Below are positions 2,459 through 64,000 of a DNA stretch of 64,000 bases, one piece after another. Both the position numbers and the translations under genes were made by a program. Location of the stretch: sequence record NC_054924.1, one strand, 5' to 3'. The notes beneath the pieces were generated by a model, which worked only from the letters and a program-made list of their open reading frames with translations, ran no database searches and was not told the DNA's origin. The stretch comes from Escherichia phage vB_EcoM_Lutter. Position 1 is the first letter of the stretch. The number at the start of each line of letters is the position of its first letter.

Positions 2459-4278
2459 TACTGACTCATCCATTCTTTGCGAAGGTCAGCATTATCTCCC
2501 ATGAGCATTTCAAAAAGCTCTTTCCAGTTCTCAGGAAGTTTAACAACATCATATACTGGATTTTGAATCATTTCACGATATTCAGATTTTTCCAAAGAGC
2601 CAAGTCCTTTAATATAACGGATGCTATGTTTAGGTAGAGCATCTTTGGCACTCTCATATTCAGCGACTGTATAAAACCATTCTTGTTTTTTACCGACCTG
2701 AGCGATGATTACAGGAGTTTTGACGAAGCGAATTCTTCCTTGTTCAAACAGTTCTGGCCAATTACTAAAAAATCCGAGCAGAGAAGGATAAATGCTTCCT
2801 AGACCATCGTGGTCAGCATCGGTCATAATAGCAATATTATGATAATTCAAGTTTTCAGCCTTTTCACCAAGAACTAATCCAGTGATTGCGCAAATGTCAA
2901 ACAGTTCTTTGTTTTTAAGCATATCGGCATATGACATACCCCAACTGTTGAGAACTTTACCACGCAATGGATAACCACCATGAAGTTCTTTATCACGAAC
3001 ATCAATAAGATATCCGATAGCAGAATCACCCTCAGTCAAGAAAAGAGTAGTGTCAGCGTCTTTACCACAAAGATTCGCTTTAATATGTTTATGAACCTTA
3101 GCTTTAGAAGCCTTTTTAGCTGCTTTAGTTTCTGCTGCTTTTTCTGCCGCCAATTTACGAGCCAAGGCAGCTTCAATAATTGGCATCAGAATTGCTTCAT
3201 TATTTAGAATAGCGCGTGAAATCTTTTTAGCGTCAAGTTGAATATGACTACGAATTTCGCCAAATGGAGAAGTCAAACGCTCTTTAGTTTGAGAATCAAA
3301 TCGCATGTTTTTCATATCACGAACAAACATAACGATAGTCAAACATTCTTTAACACGCGCTTTAGTTACATCAATTTTGAACTTACGTTTGATTTGTGGA
3401 ATAAGGTCTTCACAAATATCATCCATAACACAGTCAATGTGATGGCCACCATTCTTAGTATGAATGTTATTGACGTATGTTAATTGACGAAAACCATCCG
3501 GTGAACGACCAACCGCAATAGAACAATTTTCTTGTTCTTGAACAATAGCATGCTCATCATATTGGCGTGCATATTTCTTAAAATTACCCTGAACCTTTTT
3601 ACCATTAAAGGTAAATTGAATATCAGGATAAACTACTGCAAGTGTCTGGAGGCGATCTAATGTAATGTCAAGATAAACTTGAGATAGCTCATTAGTTTCA
3701 AATGACATAAAATCAGGAATGAAAGTAACACGTGTTCCTTTCCATTTTCCAGGAATAGTTTCCCATGATTTATTTTCCATGCCATTTGAACAACGAACTA
3801 CAATATTATTTTGACCGTCGCCAGTTTCACCGACAAACATCACAGAAAAAATGTTTGTCAAACTAGAACCAACACCGTTCATACCGCCAGTGACGCGTTC
3901 TTTATCATCACCGAAGTTACCACCTGCTTTTGGAATAGTCCATGCAGCAACAGGACCAGGAATTTCTTCACCTGTAGGTGTTTTAACCATCGCCTGTGGA
4001 ATACCACGACCGTTATCTTCAACTGTTACTTGATTGTTTTTAATAGTAACATTAATTTTATTTGCGAATTTAAACTTAGTACGAATACCTTCATCTACTG
4101 AGTTATCGATAATTTCATCAATAAGCTTAACAAGACCAGGTACATACTGAACACTTTCCCATTTACCAAACAGAAAGCGCTCATGCATTTCATTAGCAGA
4201 AGAGCCAATATACATGCCGCTACGCTTTTTGATATGTTCAATATCGCTCAGAATTTTAATTTCATTCTTAATCATCAC
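2458..4278 (-). CDS. 39: DNA topoisomerase II large subunit, uninterrupted (gene 39 and gene 60 parts in one frame)
   Basis: 606-aa GyrB-like ATPase; the segment IAIMTDADHDG-LGSIYPSLLGFF is contiguous, so no bypass element or mobA insertion. Confidence 0.9.
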   Translation of the reverse strand: MMIKNEIKILSDIEHIKKRSGMYIGSSANEMHERFLFGKWESVQYVPGLVKLIDEIIDNSVDEGIRTKFKFANKINVTIKNNQVTVEDNGRGIPQAMVKTPTGEEIPGPVAAWTIPKAGGNFGDDKERVTGGMNGVGSSLTNIFSVMFVGETGDGQNNIVVRCSNGMENKSWETIPGKWKGTRVTFIPDFMSFETNELSQVYLDITLDRLQTLAVVYPDIQFTFNGKKVQGNFKKYARQYDEHAIVQEQENCSIAVGRSPDGFRQLTYVNNIHTKNGGHHIDCVMDDICEDLIPQIKRKFKIDVTKARVKECLTIVMFVRDMKNMRFDSQTKERLTSPFGEIRSHIQLDAKKISRAILNNEAILMPIIEAALARKLAAEKAAETKAAKKASKAKVHKHIKANLCGKDADTTLFLTEGDSAIGYLIDVRDKELHGGYPLRGKVLNSWGMSYADMLKNKELFDICAITGLVLGEKAENLNYHNIAIMTDADHDGLGSIYPSLLGFFSNWPELFEQGRIRFVKTPVIIAQVGKKQEWFYTVAEYESAKDALPKHSIRYIKGLGSLEKSEYREMIQNPVYDVVKLPENWKELFEMLMGDNADLRKEWMSQ

Positions 4279-4303
4279 TTATCCTCGTTTGGTTTCGGGA
4301 ATA

Positions 4304-4330
4304 TTATACTCCAATAATCATAAAGCTAAA
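4304..4330 (-). promoter_or_regulatory. Middle-type promoter candidate (MotA-box-like TTTAGCTTTA, N12, TATAAT)
   Basis: Minus-strand TTTAGCTTTA then 12 nt then TATAAT, immediately after a UUCG hairpin; the same module recurs at 37243..37280. Confidence 0.4.
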
Positions 4331-4345
4331 GGCCCGAAGGCCTTT
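4328..4345 (-). terminator. UUCG-tetraloop stem-loop (terminator or RNA stability element)
   Basis: Inverted repeat AAAGGCC-CGAA-GGCCTTT on plus strand, giving a UUCG loop in minus-strand RNA; follows an ORF stop. Confidence 0.5.
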
Positions 4346-4614
4346 TATTTAAAACGAATAGTCGAATCCTTGAAGAATAGACCAGAACATACTGTTCCTT
4401 CTACTTTCTGCCCAGTAGGTCCAATAGCACGAAATCCAGTATGCTGGAAATCATTTTCAGAGCAACCAAACCAATTGTATCCAGTGATTTCAATATTAGT
4501 AAAACCACTTGAAGACAAAACTTTGGTTGCATTATCAGCATCAGTACATCCTACTAAAGACACTGCTAATACTAATGCTGCAATAGAACGATTAATATAT
4601 TTCATAATTTTCAC
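4345..4614 (-). CDS. predicted lipoprotein (39.1 position)
   Basis: 89-aa ORF with signal peptide and lipobox LVGC. Confidence 0.5.
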   Translation of the reverse strand: MKIMKYINRSIAALVLAVSLVGCTDADNATKVLSSSGFTNIEITGYNWFGCSENDFQHTGFRAIGPTGQKVEGTVCSGLFFKDSTIRFK

Positions 4615-10464: not shown

Positions 10465-11211
10465 TTATCCTCGGATAAGTTTAAAAATTGAACAATTTAG
10501 CGGATATCCTCTTTTCAGTTTAAGTTTATCAATAAAAGACAAGTTTTGATACCGCTCTACACCTTGAATAATTTTATCACACATATCATATTGCATTTCT
10601 GCTTCTGACAACTTTTTCACAGTTTTCCAATCCGAGCCTTTAAGAAGAACGTTCAATTTAACAACTTCAGCGCCTTCTGCTATACGAGAACCATCAATAC
10701 GAGCTTTAAGTGCTATAATCGTTAGCTTAACGTCAGAAGTTTGTTTTGATTTAGAAAGCTGAGAAATGTGTTCAATTCGGTTTTCACGTTTTTTCTGTAT
10801 AGCTTTAATTTGATTATAGGTCTTTTTGATTTTAGCCCATTTCTTTTCATCTAAATTTAGTTTATGAACTTTTTTCGCAGATGAACGACCAATTCGCAAA
10901 GCAAATAAATCACGCTTTTCAATCAACTCTTCTAAAGTATAATCAGAACGAAATGTATTATACTTTTTCTTTACTGCAATAACATTCCCTTTAATGTATC
11001 CAACGTTATTATCAAAACGTTCTAATGATAATTTCTCTCCTTCAATACGATTATCAAAAGGTTCTCCCGAGTAAGCACAAACTTTTTGATCTAAAATGTT
11101 CTTAATGTAATTGAAGTCTAAGTTAAAATCTTTAGAACGTCTTTTTGCAGATGCCTGAGTATGCTCTAAGCGACGTTTAATTTTACGAATTTGATTATTA
11201 GACAGTTTCAT
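10465..11211 (-). CDS. srd: Srd-like protein
   Basis: 248-aa basic ORF between dda and modA; assigned by size and synteny. Confidence 0.5.
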   Translation of the reverse strand: MKLSNNQIRKIKRRLEHTQASAKRRSKDFNLDFNYIKNILDQKVCAYSGEPFDNRIEGEKLSLERFDNNVGYIKGNVIAVKKKYNTFRSDYTLEELIEKRDLFALRIGRSSAKKVHKLNLDEKKWAKIKKTYNQIKAIQKKRENRIEHISQLSKSKQTSDVKLTIIALKARIDGSRIAEGAEVVKLNVLLKGSDWKTVKKLSEAEMQYDMCDKIIQGVERYQNLSFIDKLKLKRGYPLNCSIFKLIRG

Positions 11212-18851: not shown

Positions 18852-19484
18852 TTAACCTTTATTCATAAAAGCATTAAAAATTTGATCGTCAATAGAAACT
18901 TTTACTTTAGGCTGTTCTTCAAACGGTAATTCATATCCACATATTACAATTTTGTGATCGATACCAAAATACACAGAAGCAATATTATTAATATTATTTT
19001 CAGTGAAATCTAAATCAACATCAATATCTTTTTGACTAACGCTCAAAGGATAATTAATACGAATAATTCGATTATCTTTAACAAAGATTCCACCGACATA
19101 CTCTGTGCTGCGTTTAAAGTTTACACGTTTCCTAAATGAAAAATATTCAGGTTCTTTATGGGCTCGACTCATAGGGCTTAAAGTGTATTCCGAATATGAA
19201 ATATCAAATCCTACACCTTCAATATGAGCCAAAGTATCATGATTAAACCAATTATAATCGTATGCCAAATCCATTAAATTGTAATATGTGAAAGGCACCG
19301 GATTAACATCATATGTTGTACCTTTAAAATCTGCCCAGGCAACGATTTCGTTATCTTTAACAATTACAAAAATTGTGCCAATAAGATATCTACGGTTATT
19401 TTCATCAGGTGTTATATTATAACATTGTGCATCAGGAAATTTACCGTATTTAAACGGTGGATTTTTGTGCATATAATAAATCAT
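18852..19484 (-). CDS. two-domain protein (61.2 position)
   Basis: 210-aa ORF with two internal repeats of a VKDN-containing domain. Confidence 0.55.
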   Translation of the reverse strand: MIYYMHKNPPFKYGKFPDAQCYNITPDENNRRYLIGTIFVIVKDNEIVAWADFKGTTYDVNPVPFTYYNLMDLAYDYNWFNHDTLAHIEGVGFDISYSEYTLSPMSRAHKEPEYFSFRKRVNFKRSTEYVGGIFVKDNRIIRINYPLSVSQKDIDVDLDFTENNINNIASVYFGIDHKIVICGYELPFEEQPKVKVSIDDQIFNAFMNKG

Positions 19485-19485
19485 A

Positions 19486-19779
19486 TTATTCGCCTGTGAT
19501 TTCGGTTACGATATTTTTGTTATTAAAGTTTTTATCGCAATACAGAACATAATTATACTGCATTACACCACCAGACTTAAGTTGTTTTTGCACTTCAGCT
19601 TTCATTTCAGGACGATCACGCTCAACGATATTCATAATATCTGCTTCAATTTGAGTTTCAACCTCAGTCTGATCTGCAGTCATAGACCATTCACACAAAT
19701 CTTTATCATAACCTGCCATAGCAGGCTGAGCAGCACAAGAAGCTAAAGCAAAAATTGTAGCAAAAATAAATTTTTTCAT
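19486..19779 (-). CDS. sp: spackle periplasmic protein (superinfection exclusion)
   Basis: 97-aa ORF with cleavable signal peptide; matches T4 Sp size and location. Confidence 0.75.
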   Translation of the reverse strand: MKKFIFATIFALASCAAQPAMAGYDKDLCEWSMTADQTEVETQIEADIMNIVERDRPEMKAEVQKQLKSGGVMQYNYVLYCDKNFNNKNIVTEITGE

Positions 19780-23370: not shown

Positions 23371-24219
23371 TTAATCAACTGCTATTGGATGAATAGCATT
23401 AAACTTATGAAATGCTTCTGATTTTTCTTTACGAGAAACACACATGCGAAGAACCTTTAATGGCTCGTCTTCTTCACCCAACGATTTTCGTTTTTCAATA
23501 TTAGAAGTTTTCCAACGAGCTTGCTCTGGAAACTCTCTATTGATTTGTTCAAGCGCTCTATTATGTTTAGAATTACTACGAATTGAACTGCACCCGCCGG
23601 GAGCGTGTGATTTTCCAGATACAACTAGATATTTGAACAAGGCCAAATGCGGATAACCTTGATTAATTAAATTGAGAAATGCGTACATATCTTCACATAA
23701 ATCAATTTTTCCATACCCAATTTGTTCTGTCGTAAGTTTTCCGAGGTCATACCATGTATTCGTGAATCCATATGAGTTTTCACGATAATTACCCCAAGAT
23801 GAAGTAATTTTAAAAATTGGTAGACGAGCATGACCGTGATAATACCCGCAATCCATAGCATCCTCAACGTATTGAATTAATTCATAGAACTGTTCACGAG
23901 TTAATTGATTAATTTTATCTACGCGCCGTTTATCGTCTCTCTTTCGTATTGAACTCATACGAATAGTAGTATCATCATCAATCATCCAGATTCGTTGACC
24001 TGCATACATATCAGTAATTGCTTTACGAGTACCGGCAATTCCATTAACATCATCAGGAATAGTTACAATTTTAGCTCTAGACCCATAAGCATCATAATAA
24101 GCTTTTTCTTCGTGTTCACGCACTACAATATGTGGTTCATAATCAGTCGGAAACATATCAAGGGCAGAAACTGCCCCTACGCGTTGATAGCTTGGAATTA
24201 CGAATTGAATCATTTCCAC
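23371..24219 (-). CDS. putative beta-glucosyl-HMC-alpha-glucosyltransferase (T2/T6-type)
   Basis: 282-aa ORF in the slot where T4 has the 351-aa beta-gt; size fits the T2/T6 enzyme; glycosyltransferase-like DDD motif. Confidence 0.5.
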   Translation of the reverse strand: MEMIQFVIPSYQRVGAVSALDMFPTDYEPHIVVREHEEKAYYDAYGSRAKIVTIPDDVNGIAGTRKAITDMYAGQRIWMIDDDTTIRMSSIRKRDDKRRVDKINQLTREQFYELIQYVEDAMDCGYYHGHARLPIFKITSSWGNYRENSYGFTNTWYDLGKLTTEQIGYGKIDLCEDMYAFLNLINQGYPHLALFKYLVVSGKSHAPGGCSSIRSNSKHNRALEQINREFPEQARWKTSNIEKRKSLGEEDEPLKVLRMCVSRKEKSEAFHKFNAIHPIAVD

Positions 24220-34198: not shown

Positions 34199-35053
34199 TC
34201 ACAATGAAGAAAATTCTTTAACTAAAGCCTGTAATGAAGCCTCTATTGGATATCCGTTCTTAACTAACATTTTCCTAAACATCACATGTTTAGGACGATT
34301 ATATGATATCCACAATTCATACAATTTATCTTTATTATCCCAATGATAGCCTTTTCGTCGAGATGCTATATGAGCTTTTCTAATCTCCGGATTTTTCCAA
34401 CTAGCAGCTACTGAATTTGATATAGCTATTTTATATTCAGGTTTTGATAAAGCAGCACGAACAGCCTTTTGGTGTTTAATTTTATTTTCTTCGTTATTAA
34501 ACCATTCCCTTGAAGCCATTGAAATTTTTTGTTTTGTTTTAAAACTATTTAATCTTTCTTTGTTATCTTTCCTATTTTTTGCTACTGAAAAATATTTTAA
34601 TGCCCTTTCTCTAGCAGCATTTCTATTTTGCGGATTTGAATAATATTGTTGAAGCCTTTTTGATATTGTGTCACTTACATCTTGTTTTATAAAACTATAT
34701 TCAGCAGCTATTAAATCAACTTCGGCTAAAGATAAATTTTTATATGTTTTTCCTGACATCATTCTATTTAAAGCATTTAGCATTTTTCCATTTTTACCTT
34801 TTGCTAATAAGAAATGTGCTTTAAAATGATTAAAATGACTTAAATTAACTAAATTCCATGTAGATTTTAAATATTCAGGAAATATTGATTTAGGAAGCAC
34901 GTGATGTGCTTCCGTTTTACCTGGAGTTTTAACAGTTGAATTCATAGAAATAAAATTAATGTAAGACTTGGCGTCTTCTTCACTCAACGCTAATTTTTCA
35001 ACTAATTCCTTTATTAAAAATTCATCATTAATGTCAAGTTTAAAATTCTTCAC
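34199..35053 (-). mobile_element. free-standing HNH homing endonuclease gene (GTG start)
   Basis: 284-aa ORF with HNH motif (EAHHVLPKS...NLVNLSHFNHFKAH) and a basic repeat-rich C-terminal DNA-binding region; inserted between 46 and 47. Confidence 0.7.
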
Positions 35054-35500: not shown

Positions 35501-36516
35501 TGTGTTGCCTCTACATATAACTGATTTGCATATTGAATAAGTGCTTCACGGTCAGAATCAGTGATGTCTGGAATTGCATTAATGTATTCTTCCATCAACG
35601 TCTGAAGAGATTGAACTTCAACTTCTTCACTGTCATCTGACTCGACAGAGTTATCAATCTTTGACACAACTCGTAATGAATGCACAACTTTTTCTAGTTC
35701 AGATTCGAACTTCGTCAGATTTTTGTCTACTTCAGTTACTATAACACGTACTGATAGATTTGTAAAATCTTTATAGTCAATTTTTCCTTTAAATGGATAA
35801 TGAATTCTACGATGCCAGGTAGTATTGTTTGGAATAAATTCCATTCGTTCTGTTTCTGTATCAAACATCCAGAACCCACGAGGGTCATTCTCGTCACCTG
35901 CAGTTAGTGTCCATGGTGTCCCAATATATCTGACGTTTGCAGCCTCAGAGATAGTATGGAAGTGACCAGACCACACCTCTTTATAAGTCTTAAGGAAATC
36001 AGGTTCAAGACCGTGAGATTTCATTCCTTTATAAAAATAAAATCCATTCAGTTCCCAGTGACCAACACAAAAAGAAGCAGATGAAGTTTTGATGTGCTCA
36101 AGAATTTCACCAGTATTTTCTTCGCACATCCAAGGAATTAAATCAATTAAACATCCGTCAAAATCGACTGTAGTAGGCTTATCATATACTTTAACATTAG
36201 GATATTTAGCCAAAAGCTCAGTAGAAGCATTTGGATGCATTACATTTTTGTAGTGGAGATCGTGATTTCCTACAATAGTATGTAATGTGATTCCAGCGTC
36301 ATCAAGCATTTGAACTATTTCACGGGCAAACTCCATAGTTTTATGTGTGATTGCTTTTCGCACATCAAAAATATCACCATATTGAATCCATACAGTAATT
36401 CCATTTTTCTTAGAATATTCTATCGCTTGCTTAATTCCATCAATTTGAATACCGCGAATCCACTCATCATCAGCTTTAACGCCTAAATGCCAATCACCCA
36501 AGTTTAGTATTTTCAT
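35497..36516 (-). CDS. 47: recombination endonuclease subunit (Mre11/SbcD-like phosphoesterase)
   Basis: 339-aa ORF with calcineurin-like motifs (DWHLG, GDIFD, GNHD). Confidence 0.9.
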   Translation of the reverse strand: MKILNLGDWHLGVKADDEWIRGIQIDGIKQAIEYSKKNGITVWIQYGDIFDVRKAITHKTMEFAREIVQMLDDAGITLHTIVGNHDLHYKNVMHPNASTELLAKYPNVKVYDKPTTVDFDGCLIDLIPWMCEENTGEILEHIKTSSASFCVGHWELNGFYFYKGMKSHGLEPDFLKTYKEVWSGHFHTISEAANVRYIGTPWTLTAGDENDPRGFWMFDTETERMEFIPNNTTWHRRIHYPFKGKIDYKDFTNLSVRVIVTEVDKNLTKFESELEKVVHSLRVVSKIDNSVESDDSEEVEVQSLQTLMEEYINAIPDITDSDREALIQYANQLYVEATQ

Positions 36517-37117
36517 GGTGTCTTTTCCATCCTAATTTAGCTGCTTTTGAAACCAGTTCTTTAATTTTTCCTTTTGTCCATTCAGGACCAGGAGGTTCAT
36601 GACATAACAATTGCTTAACTCCGTTATTATACCATTTTTTACCTTTATTATGTGATGAAGCTTTAAATTTATTTGACCTTCCTTTTACATAACCTTCTGG
36701 AATATAAGGCAAAAAGGCAGATTTTCCTGTTAATGGATCATGTGAATGTATATTTCCTTTACAATTATGAGAACCATATAATGGATGATTTTGTCCTTTA
36801 TTATCTCTTCCAAATGAACCTTTTGGAGCAGCATATGACATATTAAAGAATAATGGATTTTTAACTGCATCATGCAATCGTTGATAATATAACTCGCATT
36901 TAATAGCTTCTTCACGTGTATCAAATTCAGCTAAAATGCATGAATCAAATAAGTGAGGATTATCTAAAAGCTCTTTATTATAAATTTTCTTATACTTTTT
37001 AGATAAAACTGAACCATGATATCCAGCTAAATGCCTATCTAAAGACGTAGATCCAATATAAAAAGGAGGAAGTTTATCTCCACTATATATTGTTAAATAA
37101 GTTATATATTTTTTCAT
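36494..37117 (-). mobile_element. GIY-YIG (Seg-like) homing endonuclease gene
   Basis: 207-aa ORF with GIY-YIG motif (YITYLTI...FYIGST, R, E) and NUMOD3-like repeats (GQNHPLYG, KGKKWYNNG); 3' end overlaps the start of gene 47 by 23 nt. Confidence 0.6.
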
Positions 37118-43001: not shown

Positions 43002-44815
43002 TGGTGTTTAACCCTATGCATGATTTCTTTATTTTTGCCGAGATTAAATCCACGTTCGTTCGGATTTCCCAAATAACCACAAGTTCTTCTTATTGTGTTC
43101 ATCTTTTTAGGATCAGTTTCTCCACAAATAGAACAAACAAACCCGTTTTCAGTAGGAGTCATTTCATGGGTACTTCCGCATGTAAAACACTTATCTACTG
43201 GCATATTAACACCAAAATAATCTAAATGCTGTGCAGCATAATCCCACACGGCCTCAAGACCTTTTAGGTTATTTTTCATATCAGGAAGTTCAACATAAGA
43301 AATGTGACCACCTGTCGCAATGAAATGATATGGCGCTTCACGAGAAATCTTTTCAAACGGAGTAATATTTTCTTCTACTGAAACATGGAAACTATTAGTG
43401 TACCAGCCTTTATCAGTAACATCCTTTACACTTCCATATTTCTCAGTATCAAGTTTACAGAAGCGATAGCACAGGTTTTCAGCAGGAGTAGAATACAAGC
43501 TAAAAGCAAAACCAGTTCTTTCAGTCCACTGCTTAAGACGAGCATTCATTTTAGTTAAAATTTCTCGTCCAATATCACGACCGACAAGAATATTCAATTC
43601 GTGAATACCAATGTATCCTAGGGACACTGAACTTCTACCGTTTTTAAATAACTCAATTATGTCGTCATCAGGTTTAAGACGAACCCCGAATGCACCTTCT
43701 TGGTAAAGAATAGGAGCAACAGTAGCTTTAACTCCTTTTAAGGAACTAATTCTACACATCAAAGCTTCAAAACATAAATCCATTCGTTCATTAAATAGCT
43801 CAACAAATTTCTGTTCATTGAATTGTGTTCCAATATAAGAATCTAACGCGATGCGAGGAAGATTCAGTGTTACAACACCAAGATTATTACGTCCATCAAG
43901 AATTTCATTACCAGTCGAATCTTTCCATACGCTCAAGAAACTACGGCAACCCATTGGAGAAACAGGAACAGATGAACCGGTGATAGCTTTATTGTTCTTA
44001 GCTGAAATAATATCAGGATACATTCTTTTGCTTGCACACTCTAGAGCAAGCTGCTTAATATCATAGTTCGGATCGTCTTTGTAAAGATTAACGCCTTCTT
44101 CGACGAACATAACAAGCTTAGGAAAAATAGGAGTTATCCCATCACGACCGAGACCTTTAATGCGGTTTTTAAGAATTGCCTTCTGAATCATTCGTTCAGT
44201 CCAGTCAGTTCCCGTACCAAATGTAATTGTTACAAAAGGAGTCTGTCCGTTTGAACTAAAGAGAGTATTTACTTCATATTCATAAGCTTGGAATGCATCG
44301 TATACGTCTTTTTCTGTTTTAGATTGAGCATAATTCAACGCATCAGCGATTTGCCATTTTTCTGCATCCTCAATATGTTTTGCATAGGTGCGTTTAACAT
44401 AAGGAGAAAGTACTTTATCTACATTCGCAAAAGTCGTTCCGCCATATTGGTGAGAAGCAACCTGTGCAGTAATTTGTGCCATAATTGCAGTAGCAACGCC
44501 AATTGATTTAGGAGTTTCAATCTGTGCATTACCTAGCTTAAATCCATTCTCAAGCATCCCCTTTAAATCTACTAAACAACAATTAGTAAAGGGCAATGAT
44601 ATACTGTAATCTAAATCATGAAAATGAATTAATCCAACATTATGGGCATTTACAATATGACTTGGAAGAATACGACAAGCGATATGTTTAGAAACAATAC
44701 CGGCCATTAAATCTCTTTTTGTTGGAAAGACACGAGAATCTTTGTTGGCGTTTTCGGTATTTAATTCTTTATCTTTATTTGAAATAAAATTTAAAACATC
44801 TTTCTCTAAAGACAT
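42998..44815 (-). CDS. nrdD: anaerobic ribonucleoside-triphosphate reductase, intronless
   Basis: 605-aa continuous ORF with C-terminal glycyl radical motif (RRTCGYLG) and zinc ribbon. Confidence 0.9.
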   Translation of the reverse strand: MSLEKDVLNFISNKDKELNTENANKDSRVFPTKRDLMAGIVSKHIACRILPSHIVNAHNVGLIHFHDLDYSISLPFTNCCLVDLKGMLENGFKLGNAQIETPKSIGVATAIMAQITAQVASHQYGGTTFANVDKVLSPYVKRTYAKHIEDAEKWQIADALNYAQSKTEKDVYDAFQAYEYEVNTLFSSNGQTPFVTITFGTGTDWTERMIQKAILKNRIKGLGRDGITPIFPKLVMFVEEGVNLYKDDPNYDIKQLALECASKRMYPDIISAKNNKAITGSSVPVSPMGCRSFLSVWKDSTGNEILDGRNNLGVVTLNLPRIALDSYIGTQFNEQKFVELFNERMDLCFEALMCRISSLKGVKATVAPILYQEGAFGVRLKPDDDIIELFKNGRSSVSLGYIGIHELNILVGRDIGREILTKMNARLKQWTERTGFAFSLYSTPAENLCYRFCKLDTEKYGSVKDVTDKGWYTNSFHVSVEENITPFEKISREAPYHFIATGGHISYVELPDMKNNLKGLEAVWDYAAQHLDYFGVNMPVDKCFTCGSTHEMTPTENGFVCSICGETDPKKMNTIRRTCGYLGNPNERGFNLGKNKEIMHRVKHQ

Positions 44816-45627
44816 AATTCTAATTTATCCTTTTGAAATTCTTCGTCTAAATATGGGTTCCAACCCATTTTAAACCTTTTGATGAAATTATCAATTCTAA
44901 ATTTCGGTAAGTTTAAATCCGCAAAAATAGATGATTTACTTTTAAAATCTGGACCTAAATAATCATATAAAATTTCTGCGTATTTTAACCATAATATACA
45001 AGTACCAGATTTAATTGCGTTCGGATGTTTCCAAGGTTTTACACCATACATCGGATTTCCACTTCCTTTATGCCTGATAGAAGATGAAATTCCAATTTTA
45101 ATTTTAGCTTCCTTTGTATGCGAAAATCCACGATGCGGATTTTCTTTCCAGTATTTTTTAGAAGCTTCTGATATTTTCTTTCTGGCTAAATTAGTATGAT
45201 GCTTTCCATAAAATCCATGATTTTTGCCTTTATTACGATTTCTTTTAATCATGGTTATTGATTGCTTTTCTCTAGTTTCTTTAGAAGGAGAAACACCGTA
45301 CGTTGTAAATTGACCATCAGCATATGCTAAATTAAAATACTCTTTATTCCATACATCTTTTTCTATATTCTTTTGAAATTCAGCTTCAATGCTAGTTATT
45401 TGTTCATCTCCGACTAATTGAAAATATAATATTTCAACTTTCGGCGTTTCTTTCAATAAGGCTTTTTGAAATTCGGAAGATGACGAAGACGAATAATAAA
45501 ATTTACCATTTTTATCAATAATATTCGTTCCATCAAAAGTGCAATTGGTTTTACTTCCAATGTAATAATATGGTGGGGTTTTAGCATTAATTCTATTAAT
45601 AAATGATAGTTTATATACTACGTTCAT
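44806..45627 (-). mobile_element. GIY-YIG (Seg-like) homing endonuclease gene
   Basis: 273-aa ORF with GIY-YIG-like N-terminus (VYKLSF...YYIGSKT) and NUMOD3-like repeats (GKNHGFYG, SGNPMYG); between nrdD and 49. Confidence 0.6.
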
Positions 45628-59984: not shown

Positions 59985-60212
59985 TCATTTTGGTTTACCT
60001 TCTTTAACGAAATCAGGATAAGGATAAAATCCTGAATAAAATCCTTCACCTTTATGATTGATGCATCCTTTATTAGAACAATAGCACCAATAATCGAAAT
60101 CACAAGTCATTTCATCGTTGCATAAAGCAAAAACAACCGGCCACTTACACTTTTCGCAGTGGGCATTTTTAAGAATACTAGTTTGGCTCATAACCATGTA
60201 ACCTTTAAGCAA
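59985..60212 (-). CDS. Cys-rich small protein
   Basis: 75-aa ORF with many Cys/His. Confidence 0.4.
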   Translation of the reverse strand: MLKGYMVMSQTSILKNAHCEKCKWPVVFALCNDEMTCDFDYWCYCSNKGCINHKGEGFYSGFYPYPDFVKEGKPK

Positions 60213-60415
60213 TATTCTTCTACATGTTGTTTACGACCTTTCTTATCAATAAAGGTATATTCAACGAATGTTCCAATGTAGTCTTTATCTACATCATGTG
60301 GACTATTAATTGGACATTTAGTACGGCAAATGCGTTCCCATTGACGAATAATTACTGCCTTATTCTTTGGGTCATACGGATGTGGATAATGTATATTCAT
60401 AATAACGGTTCCCAA
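60188..60415 (-). CDS. hypothetical protein
   Basis: 75-aa ORF. Confidence 0.4.
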   Translation of the reverse strand: MGTVIMNIHYPHPYDPKNKAVIIRQWERICRTKCPINSPHDVDKDYIGTFVEYTFIDKKGRKQHVEEYCLKVTWL

Positions 60416-60864
60416 TCAACAATCACAATTTCTAATTTAGAGGAATATGTATCTAAAATCCCCTCAATAATATCCCAGTTCCCTTTACCTATGCCTGCAC
60501 CAATCCTAGGCATATAGATTGTAGGTTTAATCAGTTTATTTTCACCAAACTCATTTAATTCTAACATACAATTCATTAAAGCGGAATACTCAAAATTTGG
60601 CCCCGGTTGAAATTGAGTATAAAGATTGAAGCAGTAAGCTTTATGAGTCCTAAAGTATTTTTCATAGACTGAGTAAGAACCGAGTTTAGTTACATCGCCC
60701 CATTCTGTCTGTAATTTATCAGCTTCCAAAATTTTAGGGAAAGCTTTAGTTAATTGACCTGCGACTCCAGCTTTCATCGTGTGAAAACAGTTACACCCAT
60801 GCGCAATAATATTACCTTCAAGAAAGAGGGCGACAATATCGCCCTTGATATATTTTACAATCAT
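60397..60864 (-). CDS. macro domain protein (ADP-ribose binding/processing)
   Basis: 155-aa ORF with macro-domain signatures (KGDIVALFLEGNIIAHGCNC...AGVAG and IYMPRIGAGIGKGNW). Confidence 0.6.
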   Translation of the reverse strand: MIVKYIKGDIVALFLEGNIIAHGCNCFHTMKAGVAGQLTKAFPKILEADKLQTEWGDVTKLGSYSVYEKYFRTHKAYCFNLYTQFQPGPNFEYSALMNCMLELNEFGENKLIKPTIYMPRIGAGIGKGNWDIIEGILDTYSSKLEIVIVDWEPLL

Positions 60865-61208
60865 CTAGTACTCAATCCTCGATTATAAGAATCTACCAAA
60901 CGGTCAACCATTGAATGACAAGCGGCTTTATCTTTCTCCTCCGCAACTGAACATTCTAAGGTATTCCACTTTTTAGCATATCGTTTTAACAATGTATCAT
61001 TTTTGTATCTGCTTGATTTATCTCTTTCTCCGTCTTTATATGCATATATTAATTTCTGCGCAAATTCAGCTTGGCATGCTTTATTTTTCCCGCAATAATC
61101 CGCTGCAGTACGGTTTACATACTCTCTAATTTCAGTATATGATGTATCTGCTAACGCAGAAGCAGAAAATGAAATTAATCCTATACATAAAACCAAAATT
61201 TTAGTCAT
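60861..61208 (-). CDS. secreted protein (vs position)
   Basis: 115-aa ORF with signal peptide; size matches T4 Vs but assignment is by synteny only. Confidence 0.4.
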   Translation of the reverse strand: MTKILVLCIGLISFSASALADTSYTEIREYVNRTAADYCGKNKACQAEFAQKLIYAYKDGERDKSSRYKNDTLLKRYAKKWNTLECSVAEEKDKAACHSMVDRLVDSYNRGLSTR

Positions 61209-61746
61209 TTACTATTTCCAAAAGTTTATTATTTTTAAGGTAATTAGCCTTTTCTAGGACTTCAGAAGCATATTTAGAACCAGCTTTAACATTCCATCCC
61301 GAATTATAAGAGGATATTGCTTTTCTTATATCGCCCTTATGTATATTTAACCAATAAGAAAGTTCAATGTACGCCCAGGAAGCTGAATTGGATCGTTTAT
61401 TCAACATTCTTTTTATTTCAGCATCGGTCATATTATAACCAAGTTCCTTAACTCTCGCTCGCATAGTAGGCAAATAATTTTGGAACATTCCGTAGGCGTG
61501 ATGCTTTGGTTTAGATTTTAAATTAACTCCGCCAGAGCTTTCTTGCCATAAAATGGCTGCCATTATATGACCTAATCCGCTCTTGTGGATATTTTTGTGT
61601 GTTTTATATTTTCCATCCTTAGAAAATTGTTCCCCGAATTGATACGCGTAACGCATGTTATCGAGTTGGACATTACTGAAAGTATGCTCGGAGCTATGCG
61701 CCATCATTGAAATGGCCAATAGACCAGCGAGTAGTGCTTTTCTCAT
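61201..61746 (-). CDS. lytic transglycosylase-like protein (SLT domain), secreted
   Basis: 181-aa ORF with signal peptide and SLT motifs (ILWQESSGG, AYGMFQ). Confidence 0.6.
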   Translation of the reverse strand: MRKALLAGLLAISMMAHSSEHTFSNVQLDNMRYAYQFGEQFSKDGKYKTHKNIHKSGLGHIMAAILWQESSGGVNLKSKPKHHAYGMFQNYLPTMRARVKELGYNMTDAEIKRMLNKRSNSASWAYIELSYWLNIHKGDIRKAISSYNSGWNVKAGSKYASEVLEKANYLKNNKLLEIVND

Positions 61747-61753
61747 GCTTACC

Positions 61754-62215
61754 TCATTGAGTTTTAATTACTGCTTTAGAAGCCTTTCCTGGTAAACGAC
61801 GACTGTTGATAATTGCCATCCTGCATTGAAGTGACGGGTTTTTGAACTTCTCATTAGGCTTACAAACTGTAAATCCAAGCCAAAGATTTCCATCTGTGAT
61901 TTCTAAACGTCCAGGACGATATTCAACCCCATCAATAAAATCCTCATCAATGTCAGGACGCGGAGGCATACTCAGGAATTCATTAACTTCTAAAACATGG
62001 TCTTTTATTTTATGGAATAATTCAAAAACATATGTCTCATCAATCTCCCGTTGAATTGCACGATCAAGAAGATGCTGAGAATATTTTAGATGAAACGATG
62101 AGACCCCTGCTGCTTTTGATGCCTCACGAATCTCATTGTTAATTTGACGAAACTCCGACTCAAAGTGACGACGAAGCTTATTTCGACGGATAAAAACTTC
62201 TGTATTGATAGTCAT
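61754..62215 (-). CDS. regB: endoribonuclease RegB
   Basis: 153-aa ORF matching T4 RegB in length and position, with an early promoter upstream. Confidence 0.8.
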   Translation of the reverse strand: MTINTEVFIRRNKLRRHFESEFRQINNEIREASKAAGVSSFHLKYSQHLLDRAIQREIDETYVFELFHKIKDHVLEVNEFLSMPPRPDIDEDFIDGVEYRPGRLEITDGNLWLGFTVCKPNEKFKNPSLQCRMAIINSRRLPGKASKAVIKTQ

Positions 62216-62242
62216 GTTATTCTCCTCTTAACTGATAGAAAA

Positions 62243-62273
62243 ATTATACCACAGTCAAGAGGAAAAGTAAACA
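62243..62273 (-). promoter_or_regulatory. T4-type early promoter
   Basis: GTTTAC, 17 nt, GTATAAT. Confidence 0.55.
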
Positions 62274-62274
62274 G

Positions 62275-62553
62275 TTATTCTTTAAATCTAATCAATTTAT
62301 TCATAGACTTTGAAACTTCTGCACGAACCTCATGTAGATTTTTGAGCTGTTCAAGACGCTGCTCATAGTAAGCAATTTCATCTTCTTCGAGACAGTCCTG
62401 TGAATCTTCTTTAAGATAACGTGCATAGTCCTGGAAAGCTTTACGGACTACTTCCTGGAAGTCATCAAGACTTTGAATTTTCTTAGGAGCAACAGATACA
62501 CGACGAGGGGCAGTATAATACTCATAACCAAACCCTGCGCTTAATTGAGCCAT
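62275..62553 (-). CDS. hypothetical protein (vs.3 position)
   Basis: 92 aa from internal ATG 62553. Confidence 0.4.
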
Positions 62554-62819
62554 TAGTATTTTTCCTCTGGTTGGAACACAGCACGGCAAGCCCACATACT
62601 GGCTTCTTTGAGTTTCGTTTTAGCAATAGTTAACTGATCGAGGCTTTCGGCGTAATTCTTCGCGAGTTCATCATCTTCACAGCTATCAAATGCTTCCCAG
62701 AATTCATCATATAAAGCATCAAAGATAAGCCCTAAACGAACTTCAGCATCTTTGATAGCATTCACTTTACTGATTTTATCGTCAGTATGTGGTTTATAAC
62801 CTTTAATGTCTTCAATCAT
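62553..62819 (-). CDS. small acidic protein (vs.4 position; possible Acb2-type cyclic-nucleotide sponge)
   Basis: 88-aa ORF at the position where T4 vs.4/Acb2 lies; assignment by size and synteny only. Confidence 0.4.
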
Positions 62820-63033
62820 ATTTTACTTCCTCACCTGTTCCCAAATCATATTCAACTAAACGAATAGGTTCATGAATGCCATATCCTTGAACAGAAATTT
62901 CTGTCGTAGGATAAATTCCATTAATATCACCCATGTTCCATACTTCGTTAAATTGCTGTTCGCCTGAATTACTAAACCACTCGGCGAAAGCATTTAGCAC
63001 ATCTTCAGAACCTTCAATAATTATCTTTGCCAT
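62812..63033 (-). CDS. hypothetical protein
   Basis: 73-aa acidic ORF. Confidence 0.4.
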   Translation of the reverse strand: MAKIIIEGSEDVLNAFAEWFSNSGEQQFNEVWNMGDINGIYPTTEISVQGYGIHEPIRLVEYDLGTGEEVKYD

Positions 63034-63395
63034 TACAAACTCTCGGTGAAGGTACGAGCGATAACGTCGCGCTGCTGTTCCGGAGTCAGAGAGTTAAAGC
63101 GAACTGCATAACCGGATACACGGATGGTCAGCTGCGGATATTTTTCCGGATGCTTAACTGCATCTTCCAGAGTTTCACGACGCAGAACGTTAACGTTCAG
63201 GTGTTGACCACCTTCAATTTTAACTGTAGGCTGTTGCTCAATTTCAATTTCACGGGCATGCAAACCATAGAAAATTTCTGGGTCTACAAAAGAGTCCTCT
63301 TTAAAGGTTTTAGAGACAATAATTCGTGCTTGAATACCATCTTCAAAATAAATAGTACCTTTATGTGTGCCTTCAAGAATTTGATATGCTTTCAT
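63033..63395 (-). CDS. autonomous glycyl radical cofactor (GrcA/YfiD-like, T4 Y06I-type)
   Basis: 120-aa ORF; C-terminal ~60 aa essentially identical to E. coli GrcA including RVSGYAVRF; that half is markedly GC-rich. Confidence 0.85.
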
Positions 63396-63402
63396 ATAAA
63401 CC

Positions 63403-63732
63403 TCAATTAGAAAATAAATTTATCCAAGATTGTTCTTTAATTAAAAATGGCTCAGAATCATATGCCATTAAACTCTGTGTGATTAGTCCTTTAAAAGGCC
63501 CATCAATAAATTCCATGGTAAAATATGGAATTTTATTCATTAGCCGTGCATTAGGAGCAGTACACAAAACTCTGCATCCTTTGAATACGCCTTTTTGTAA
63601 TTTGTATTGCTTAGGATAAAATTCGCTCAAGACGTTGTTATTTGCCAAAATTTCAAAATGATTCACCAATTTATTTTTAATAGTTTTTGGCGAAAAATAA
63701 AGATATTCGAAAAGCTGAGTGTCTGTCATCAT
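63403..63732 (-). CDS. hypothetical protein
   Basis: 109-aa ORF. Confidence 0.45.
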
Positions 63733-63859
63733 TGCATTCCGATTACGAAAAACTGTGGACGAGTAATACCATCAATGCAACATTTAATATTACAGCAGCA
63801 GTGTACAGTGTCAATATGGACACTATAAATCTTATCCATATCAGGAGATTTGACAGGCT

Positions 63860-64000
63860 CATCAATTATATACAAAATTCGCGAAAGCGATAAACCTCTG
63901 AACTTGCTTCCTTTATTACCAATAAACTGCGCACAGAATCAGTAAATAAACGAAAACGTATATCATCATTAGAATAACGCGAAAATTCCTTTTTAATGTT
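63860..64000 (-). CDS. hypothetical protein, 3' end only (start lies beyond window)
   Basis: Minus-strand frame open from the window edge to a stop at 63860. Confidence 0.3.

Follow-up and report, generated by a model that had tools for sequence, protein, structure and literature searches.

The closest described counterpart of the gene analyzed here is vs.4 of phage T4, whose product, Vs.4 or Acb2 (7UQ2; Jenson et al., Nature 2023), binds cGAMP with a Kd of about 30 nM, forms a hexamer with three cGAMP molecules and inhibits CapV (PMC10097602). T4 lacking vs.4 was sensitized about 50-fold to CBASS with weakened cGAS conjugation (PMC10097602), and T4 Acb2 acts by sequestering the signal and does not cleave it (PMC10312549, PMC12657218). 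Specifically, Y8 and F82 of T4 Vs.4 pi-stack on cGAMP, while Y8, H11, K23 and R79 provide hydrogen bonds or salt bridges (Jenson et al., PMC10097602); L29, F33, A66, A73 and A77 form the hexamer interface, and a loss-of-function screen yielded T12I, S74N and A77I, which abolish function, as well as L60F (PMC10097602). Acb2 of PaMx33 (8H2J, 8H2X, 8IXZ; Huiting et al. 2023; Cao et al.) is likewise a hexameric dinucleotide sponge, in which Y11 and K26 are essential for dinucleotide binding and R67 and T74 for binding of cA3 (PMC10312549). The latter two residues belong to a second pocket that takes up cA3 and cAAG with nanomolar affinity, whereas T4 Acb2, although it binds dinucleotides, takes up neither cA3 nor cAAG, even with the D61R exchange (PMC10312549).

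Acb2 is also sensed by the host. Panoptes (OptSE) fires once its decoy, 2',3'-c-di-AMP, is sponged away, and it is triggered by the Acb2 proteins of T4 and Bas38, with a Kd for 2',3'-c-di-AMP of about 62 nM; T4 Acb2 was both necessary and sufficient for triggering (PMC12657218).

The window, that is, the whole 64,000-nt stretch of Escherichia phage vB_EcoM_Lutter DNA (NC_054924.1) that was analyzed, is collinear with phage T4, with rIIA at position 1. Its segment from 60000 to 64000 shares 98.8% identity with Escherichia phages slur03, slur08 and slur14 and is matched by 834 phage records. For the vs.4 gene of this window, what was shown directly, as described below, is the reading frame, its homologs, the conserved residues, the predicted fold and the gene order.

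The acb2 reading frame and its neighbors

The gene acb2 (vs.4) starts with ATG, ends with TAA and occupies exactly the coordinates assigned to it in an earlier sequence-only reading (Table 1). That reading had described an acidic protein of 88 aa, and the open reading frame, its length and its acidity were all borne out, the computed values being 10.2 kDa, a pI of 4.54 and 20 D+E residues versus 12 K+R.

Table 1. Features at the acb2 locus, in window coordinates
Feature	Position	Strand	Remarks
acb2/vs.4 CDS, 88 aa + TAA	62553..62819	-	Predicted hexameric cyclic-dinucleotide sponge
Shine-Dalgarno-like GAGGAA, 8 nt 5' of acb2 ATG, within vs.5 3' end	62827..62832	-	Read from sequence: ...GGTGAGGAAGTAAAATATG
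vs.5, 73 aa, PHROG 1986, function unknown	62812..63033	-	95.9% aa identity to T4 counterpart
vs.3, 92 aa from ATG at 62553, PHROG 2037, function unknown	62275..62553	-	97.8% aa identity to T4 vs.3
Candidate sigma-70-type promoter, TTGACA - 16 nt - TAATAT, upstream of vs.7	63787..63814	-	Consensus scan

Because an in-frame TAA lies 6 nt before the ATG, the frame cannot be extended in the 5' direction. In AR1, vs.4 (AR1 locus 4054-4350) is annotated as 98 aa, with the N-terminal extension MIYVLVRKSN. This extension depends on a different 3' end of vs.5, common to AR1 and T2; in T4 and in the window (62819-62850) it is blocked by the in-frame TAA, and we therefore rejected a 98-aa form for the window. 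Judging from these comparisons, the conserved vs.4 product is the 88-aa form, the one that was crystallized. The GAGGAA motif in front of acb2 probably serves as its ribosome-binding site.

The start of acb2 and the end of vs.5, with its TGA stop codon, overlap by 8 nt, so that the two genes may be translationally coupled, and at the other end the acb2 stop codon and the vs.3 ATG share bases (TAATG); vs.3 has the same length as in T4. Pfam searches and comparison with the annotated AR1, T4 and T2 records gave the local order vs.7, vs.6, vs.5, acb2, vs.3, regB, vs.1, vs and tk.4, of which the segment vs.7-vs.6-vs.5-vs.4-vs.3-regB is common to the window, T4, T2 and AR1. The proposal that the gene stands at the T4 vs.4 position thus held, the neighbors being the same in the AR1, T2 and T4 records. 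The orthologous gene is labelled vs.4 in the AR1 and T2 records, while its CDS is unnamed in that of T4. More widely, vs.4 was found between vs.6/vs.5 and vs.3/regB in AR1, T4, T2, Sf22, JS98 and UTI-K4.

The flanking genes varied among relatives. In JS98, vs.3 is absent though vs.4 is kept; in UTI-K4 both vs.3 and vs.5 are absent and vs.4 comes directly after vs.6; and in Maroon vs.6 directly precedes vs.4. Thus vs.3 and vs.5 are dispensable neighbors of vs.4. We also considered whether they form an anti-defense module with acb2, and rejected this, since they match only PHROGs of unknown function (2037 and 1986, respectively) and are missing from some relatives that carry vs.4.

Domains were recognized by Pfam in three genes of the region. 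The product of vs.1 has an SLT domain; vs.6 (63033-63395, minus strand), which flanks the acb2 block, encodes a glycyl-radical protein resembling GrcA (PF01228, 67 bits); and tk.4 (60397-60864, minus strand), also flanking the acb2 block, encodes a macro domain (PF01661, 25 bits). Since macro domains are able to reverse ADP-ribosylation, tk.4 might be another counter-defense gene.

The candidate promoter upstream of vs.7, the best such site there on the minus strand, could drive vs.7-vs.6-vs.5-acb2-vs.3. However, a promoter and terminator scan of 61700-64000 returned 9 promoter-like sites versus 7.2 +/- 3.0 in shuffled sequence, that is, no excess over chance, so that this site is a lead rather than a finding. 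The whole window was also scanned for Rfam families and tRNAs, and no RNA features turned up over or near acb2.

Family membership, predicted fold and ligand-contact residues

A phmmer search of all PDB chains returned 7UQ2 ("Vs.4") as the best match, covering residues 1-88 (E = 8.2e-52, 176 bits), followed by weak yet full-length matches to PaMx33 Acb2 (p26; 8H2J and 8IXZ). The window protein also scored 70.4 bits against Pfam PF24729, Acb2_Tad1_hairpin (gathering cutoff 27), and matched PHROG 717 (E = 1e-31), the family in which Jenson et al. had found 198 Vs.4 homologues (PMC10097602). These matches support the possible Acb2-type sponge put forward in the sequence-only reading, which had been staked beforehand on similarity to the Acb2 family; the similarity proved clear, with 81 of the 88 residues (92%) identical to those of T4 Vs.4. 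An NCBIfam scan of Acb2, vs.3 and vs.5 gave no meaningful match, that library containing no Acb2 model.

A tblastn search located acb2 in 1231 phage records, with a coverage of at least 80% in 1227. Small size is what could suggest a chance ORF, or a small non-Acb2 protein that happens to occupy the vs.4 position. This reading has a negligible probability: the Vs.4 structure is matched with E = 8e-52, the Pfam and PHROG scores exceed their thresholds, and the gene is conserved in over 1200 phage genomes.

The fold agrees with this assignment. An AlphaFold2 single-sequence monomer model (mean pLDDT 86.4) placed helices at residues 11-45 and 50-81, so that the predicted fold is a two-helix hairpin of about 90 aa; confidence was low at the termini, where Y8 and F82 sit. 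Searching the PDB with this model by Foldseek again gave 7UQ2 as the best hit (TM 0.74), followed by PaMx33 Acb2, 8H2X and 8H2J (TM 0.71-0.72).

Tad1 (Thoeris anti-defense 1) shares the Pfam hairpin domain with Acb2 and has additional structure beyond the hairpin. No Tad1 chain appeared in the PDB sequence search at E <= 10, which listed Vs.4, PaMx33 Acb2 and one unrelated match (E = 1.5), and no Tad1 structure was among the top 50 fold matches. As these searches gave no closer similarity to Tad1 than to Acb2, we rejected a Tad1 identity.

All five residues that contact cGAMP in T4 Vs.4 (Y8, F82, H11, K23 and R79) are identical in the window protein. Unchanged as well are the interface residues L29, F33, A66, A73 and A77 and the screen positions T12, L60, S74 and A77. 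Thus every family-defining feature of Acb2/Vs.4 that can be tested on sequence was found in the window protein. We regard it with high confidence as a true orthologue of T4 Vs.4/Acb2, its function being assigned by homology.

The likeness to T4 Vs.4 extends to the length of 88 aa, the gene order, the overlapping start and stop codons and the Asp61/Thr68 arrangement of the non-functional trinucleotide site; the two differ in that the window allele carries seven substitutions and that the T4 protein was characterized experimentally, the window protein by sequence. PaMx33 Acb2 resembles the window protein in fold (TM about 0.71), and presumably in being a hexameric dinucleotide sponge, but shares only about 23-25% identity with it. 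In the phmmer alignment, Y11 and K26 of PaMx33 pair with Y8 and K23 of the window protein, and R67 and T74 pair with D61 and T68. The equivalent of the trinucleotide-pocket Arg67 is therefore Asp61, accompanied by Thr68, both as in T4 Acb2. Since Asp61 stands where Arg67 is needed, we rejected membership in the trinucleotide-binding subgroup of the PaMx33/JBD67 type; as in T4 Acb2, trinucleotide binding is not expected, and the window protein is predicted to be a dinucleotide-only sponge.

From the experiments on T4 and PaMx33, we infer that the window protein forms hexamers, binds the ligand, inhibits CBASS and triggers Panoptes. In the mechanism we propose, 10-kDa two-helix hairpins would interlock to form a hexamer, in which three pockets, lying between pairs of protomers, would each hold one cyclic dinucleotide. 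Tyr8 and Phe82 would grip the ligand by pi-stacking, and Tyr8, His11, Lys23 and Arg79 by hydrogen bonds or salt bridges; the ligands would be 3',3'-cGAMP and related CBASS/cGAS dinucleotides, as characterized for the family. Sequestration without degradation would keep the free dinucleotide below the activation threshold of effectors such as the phospholipase CapV, so that the CBASS effectors would stay silent and the phage cycle could be completed. As a corollary, dinucleotide binding would expose the phage to Panoptes.

Natural variation of acb2 and its possible consequences

The seven differences from T4 Vs.4 are E13D, E14D, G17S, L44F, N46S, C50D and F52L. Residues D13, D14 and S17 are found where helix 1 begins, and F44, S46, D50 and L52 around the hairpin turn; without Cys50, the window protein has two cysteines, versus three in T4. 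We aligned 12 alleles from five genera (Tequatrovirus, Dhakavirus, Jiaodavirus, Pseudotevenvirus and one Phapecoctavirus) and found that residues 1-33 and 68-88 were nearly invariant, the middle of the protein near the hairpin turn being the part that varies. All seven substitutions of the window allele sit in columns that vary naturally. For example, the motif DDKIS also occurs in JS98, and a further variant stretch of the window also occurs in Sf22.

At the nucleotide level, no gene of the 3-kb block (60861-63732) differs more from T4 than acb2, which shares 91.4% identity with its T4 counterpart, versus 94.1% for vs.5 and 96.7-99.3% for vs.7, vs.6, vs.3, regB, vs.1 and vs. Such a pattern is suggestive of local mosaicism or of a recombination patch centered on the anti-defense gene. 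Relative to T4, there are 13 synonymous and 7 non-synonymous codon differences. Since both classes are raised, the pattern fits an old allele, or a recombined one, better than it does a demonstrable case of adaptation.

The same observations bear on whether the ligand spectrum of the sponge has shifted from that of T4, for example against 2',3'-c-di-AMP or by gaining the Thoeris signal 3'cADPR, as a result of the seven substitutions. Positions 13, 14 and 17 adjoin both His11, a ligand contact, and the helix-capping Thr12, so substitutions there could alter affinity or specificity. Furthermore, acb2 is more diverged from T4 than its neighbors (94-99%), and phages have been argued to be under pressure to retune Acb2 specificity (PMC12657218). 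However, every known ligand contact is the same as in T4, and the changes are either conservative (two E-to-D exchanges and one G-to-S) or at the turn, distant from the pocket in the model. The variants recur in other T-even-like phages and have the appearance of ordinary allelic variation, the mixture of synonymous and non-synonymous codons again pointing to an older or recombined allele and not to adaptation; moreover, the Tequatrovirus phages Bas36-45, although diverse, are all restricted by Panoptes (PMC12657218). We consider a shifted spectrum improbable. Slightly less probable still is the specific form in which the allele has lower affinity for 2',3'-c-di-AMP while 3',3'-cGAMP binding is kept, owing to D13, D14 and S17 by the His11/Thr12 pocket wall and F44, S46, D50 and L52 at the turn. 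If true, the reduced decoy affinity would make this a natural instance of a sponge whose specificity has been adjusted so as to evade a decoy-guard system.

Loss of acb2 function does occur naturally in the genus. The T2 vs.4 locus (NC_054931) is orthologous, and its residues 9-88 are the same as those of T4, but a frameshift after codon 7 has removed Tyr8, whereas the window allele is intact. Specifically, in the T2 record (10591-10880, minus strand), MIEDIKG* is found in one frame and ...KPHTEEK... in another, and the RefSeq CDS gives an 86-aa product with a non-ATG start codon. The frameshift and the loss of Tyr8 agree with the Panoptes paper, in which the T2 Acb2 mutation is said to be likely to disrupt the dinucleotide site (PMC12657218). 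T2 is not restricted by Panoptes, and PaMx41 has a premature stop (PMC12657218). By analogy with these losses, the window allele might be inactive or decaying, as proposed for T2, the ORF persisting without sponging. This is very improbable, since the full-length ORF begins with a proper ATG behind a Shine-Dalgarno motif, the functionally tested residues are all intact, and the identical protein occurs in several independent isolates, within a 373-member cluster. We therefore favor the reading of a functional, T4-like dinucleotide sponge.

Because T4 Acb2 binds the decoy 2',3'-c-di-AMP and the window allele is intact, the phage is expected to be restricted by Panoptes. The intact acb2 thus predicts sensitivity to this system, unlike the frameshifted T2 gene, and it also predicts resistance to low-output CBASS of the cGAMP type. 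Whether acb2 is intact may be worth considering when T4-like phages are picked for therapeutic use or for studies of host range.

The 88-aa protein is 100% identical to those of vB_EcoM_G2540-3 (QBO65528.1), vB_EcoM_Lutter (YP_010071863.1) and others, and the cluster that contains it at 90% identity has 373 members. The gene, its family and its exact protein sequence are all already known and bring no new biology. The UniRef label is "Acb2/Tad1 hairpin domain-containing protein", and most GenBank entries read "hypothetical protein", a description that the name acb2 (vs.4), anti-CBASS cyclic-dinucleotide sponge, can replace.

Other differences from T4 in the window

Several further ORFs of the window, all on the minus strand, differ from the corresponding parts of T4. 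In segments without a T4 match, we found a 248-aa ORF with no Pfam match (34199-34945), a 207-aa GIY-YIG ORF with a weak score of 21.4 bits (cutoff 22.6) at 36494-37117, and one of 273 aa that contains a NUMOD3 motif (44806-45627). Conversely, some T4 stretches carrying homing-endonuclease genes, for example T4 2971-3789, had no match in the window. From these comparisons, the sets of mobile endonuclease genes appear to differ between the window phage and T4.

In addition, a 118-aa ORF at 18494-18850 matches only the C-terminal half of PF23813, AdfA (anti-DarT factor A), with 31.9 bits. It stands where the T4 locus (19118-19744) has a 208-aa ORF, which we take to be gene 61.2, and may represent a shortened or diverged anti-DarTG factor. 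Finally, a 280-aa ORF at 23371-24213, with a match of 39 bits to PF20691, TAGT (TET-associated glycosyltransferase), lies at the place of the T4 beta-glucosyltransferase gene and does not match the T4 record at the DNA level, although that record is itself from a beta-gt mutant. This ORF may encode a second glucosyltransferase of the T2/T6 type (beta-alpha-gt) and not the T4 beta-gt.
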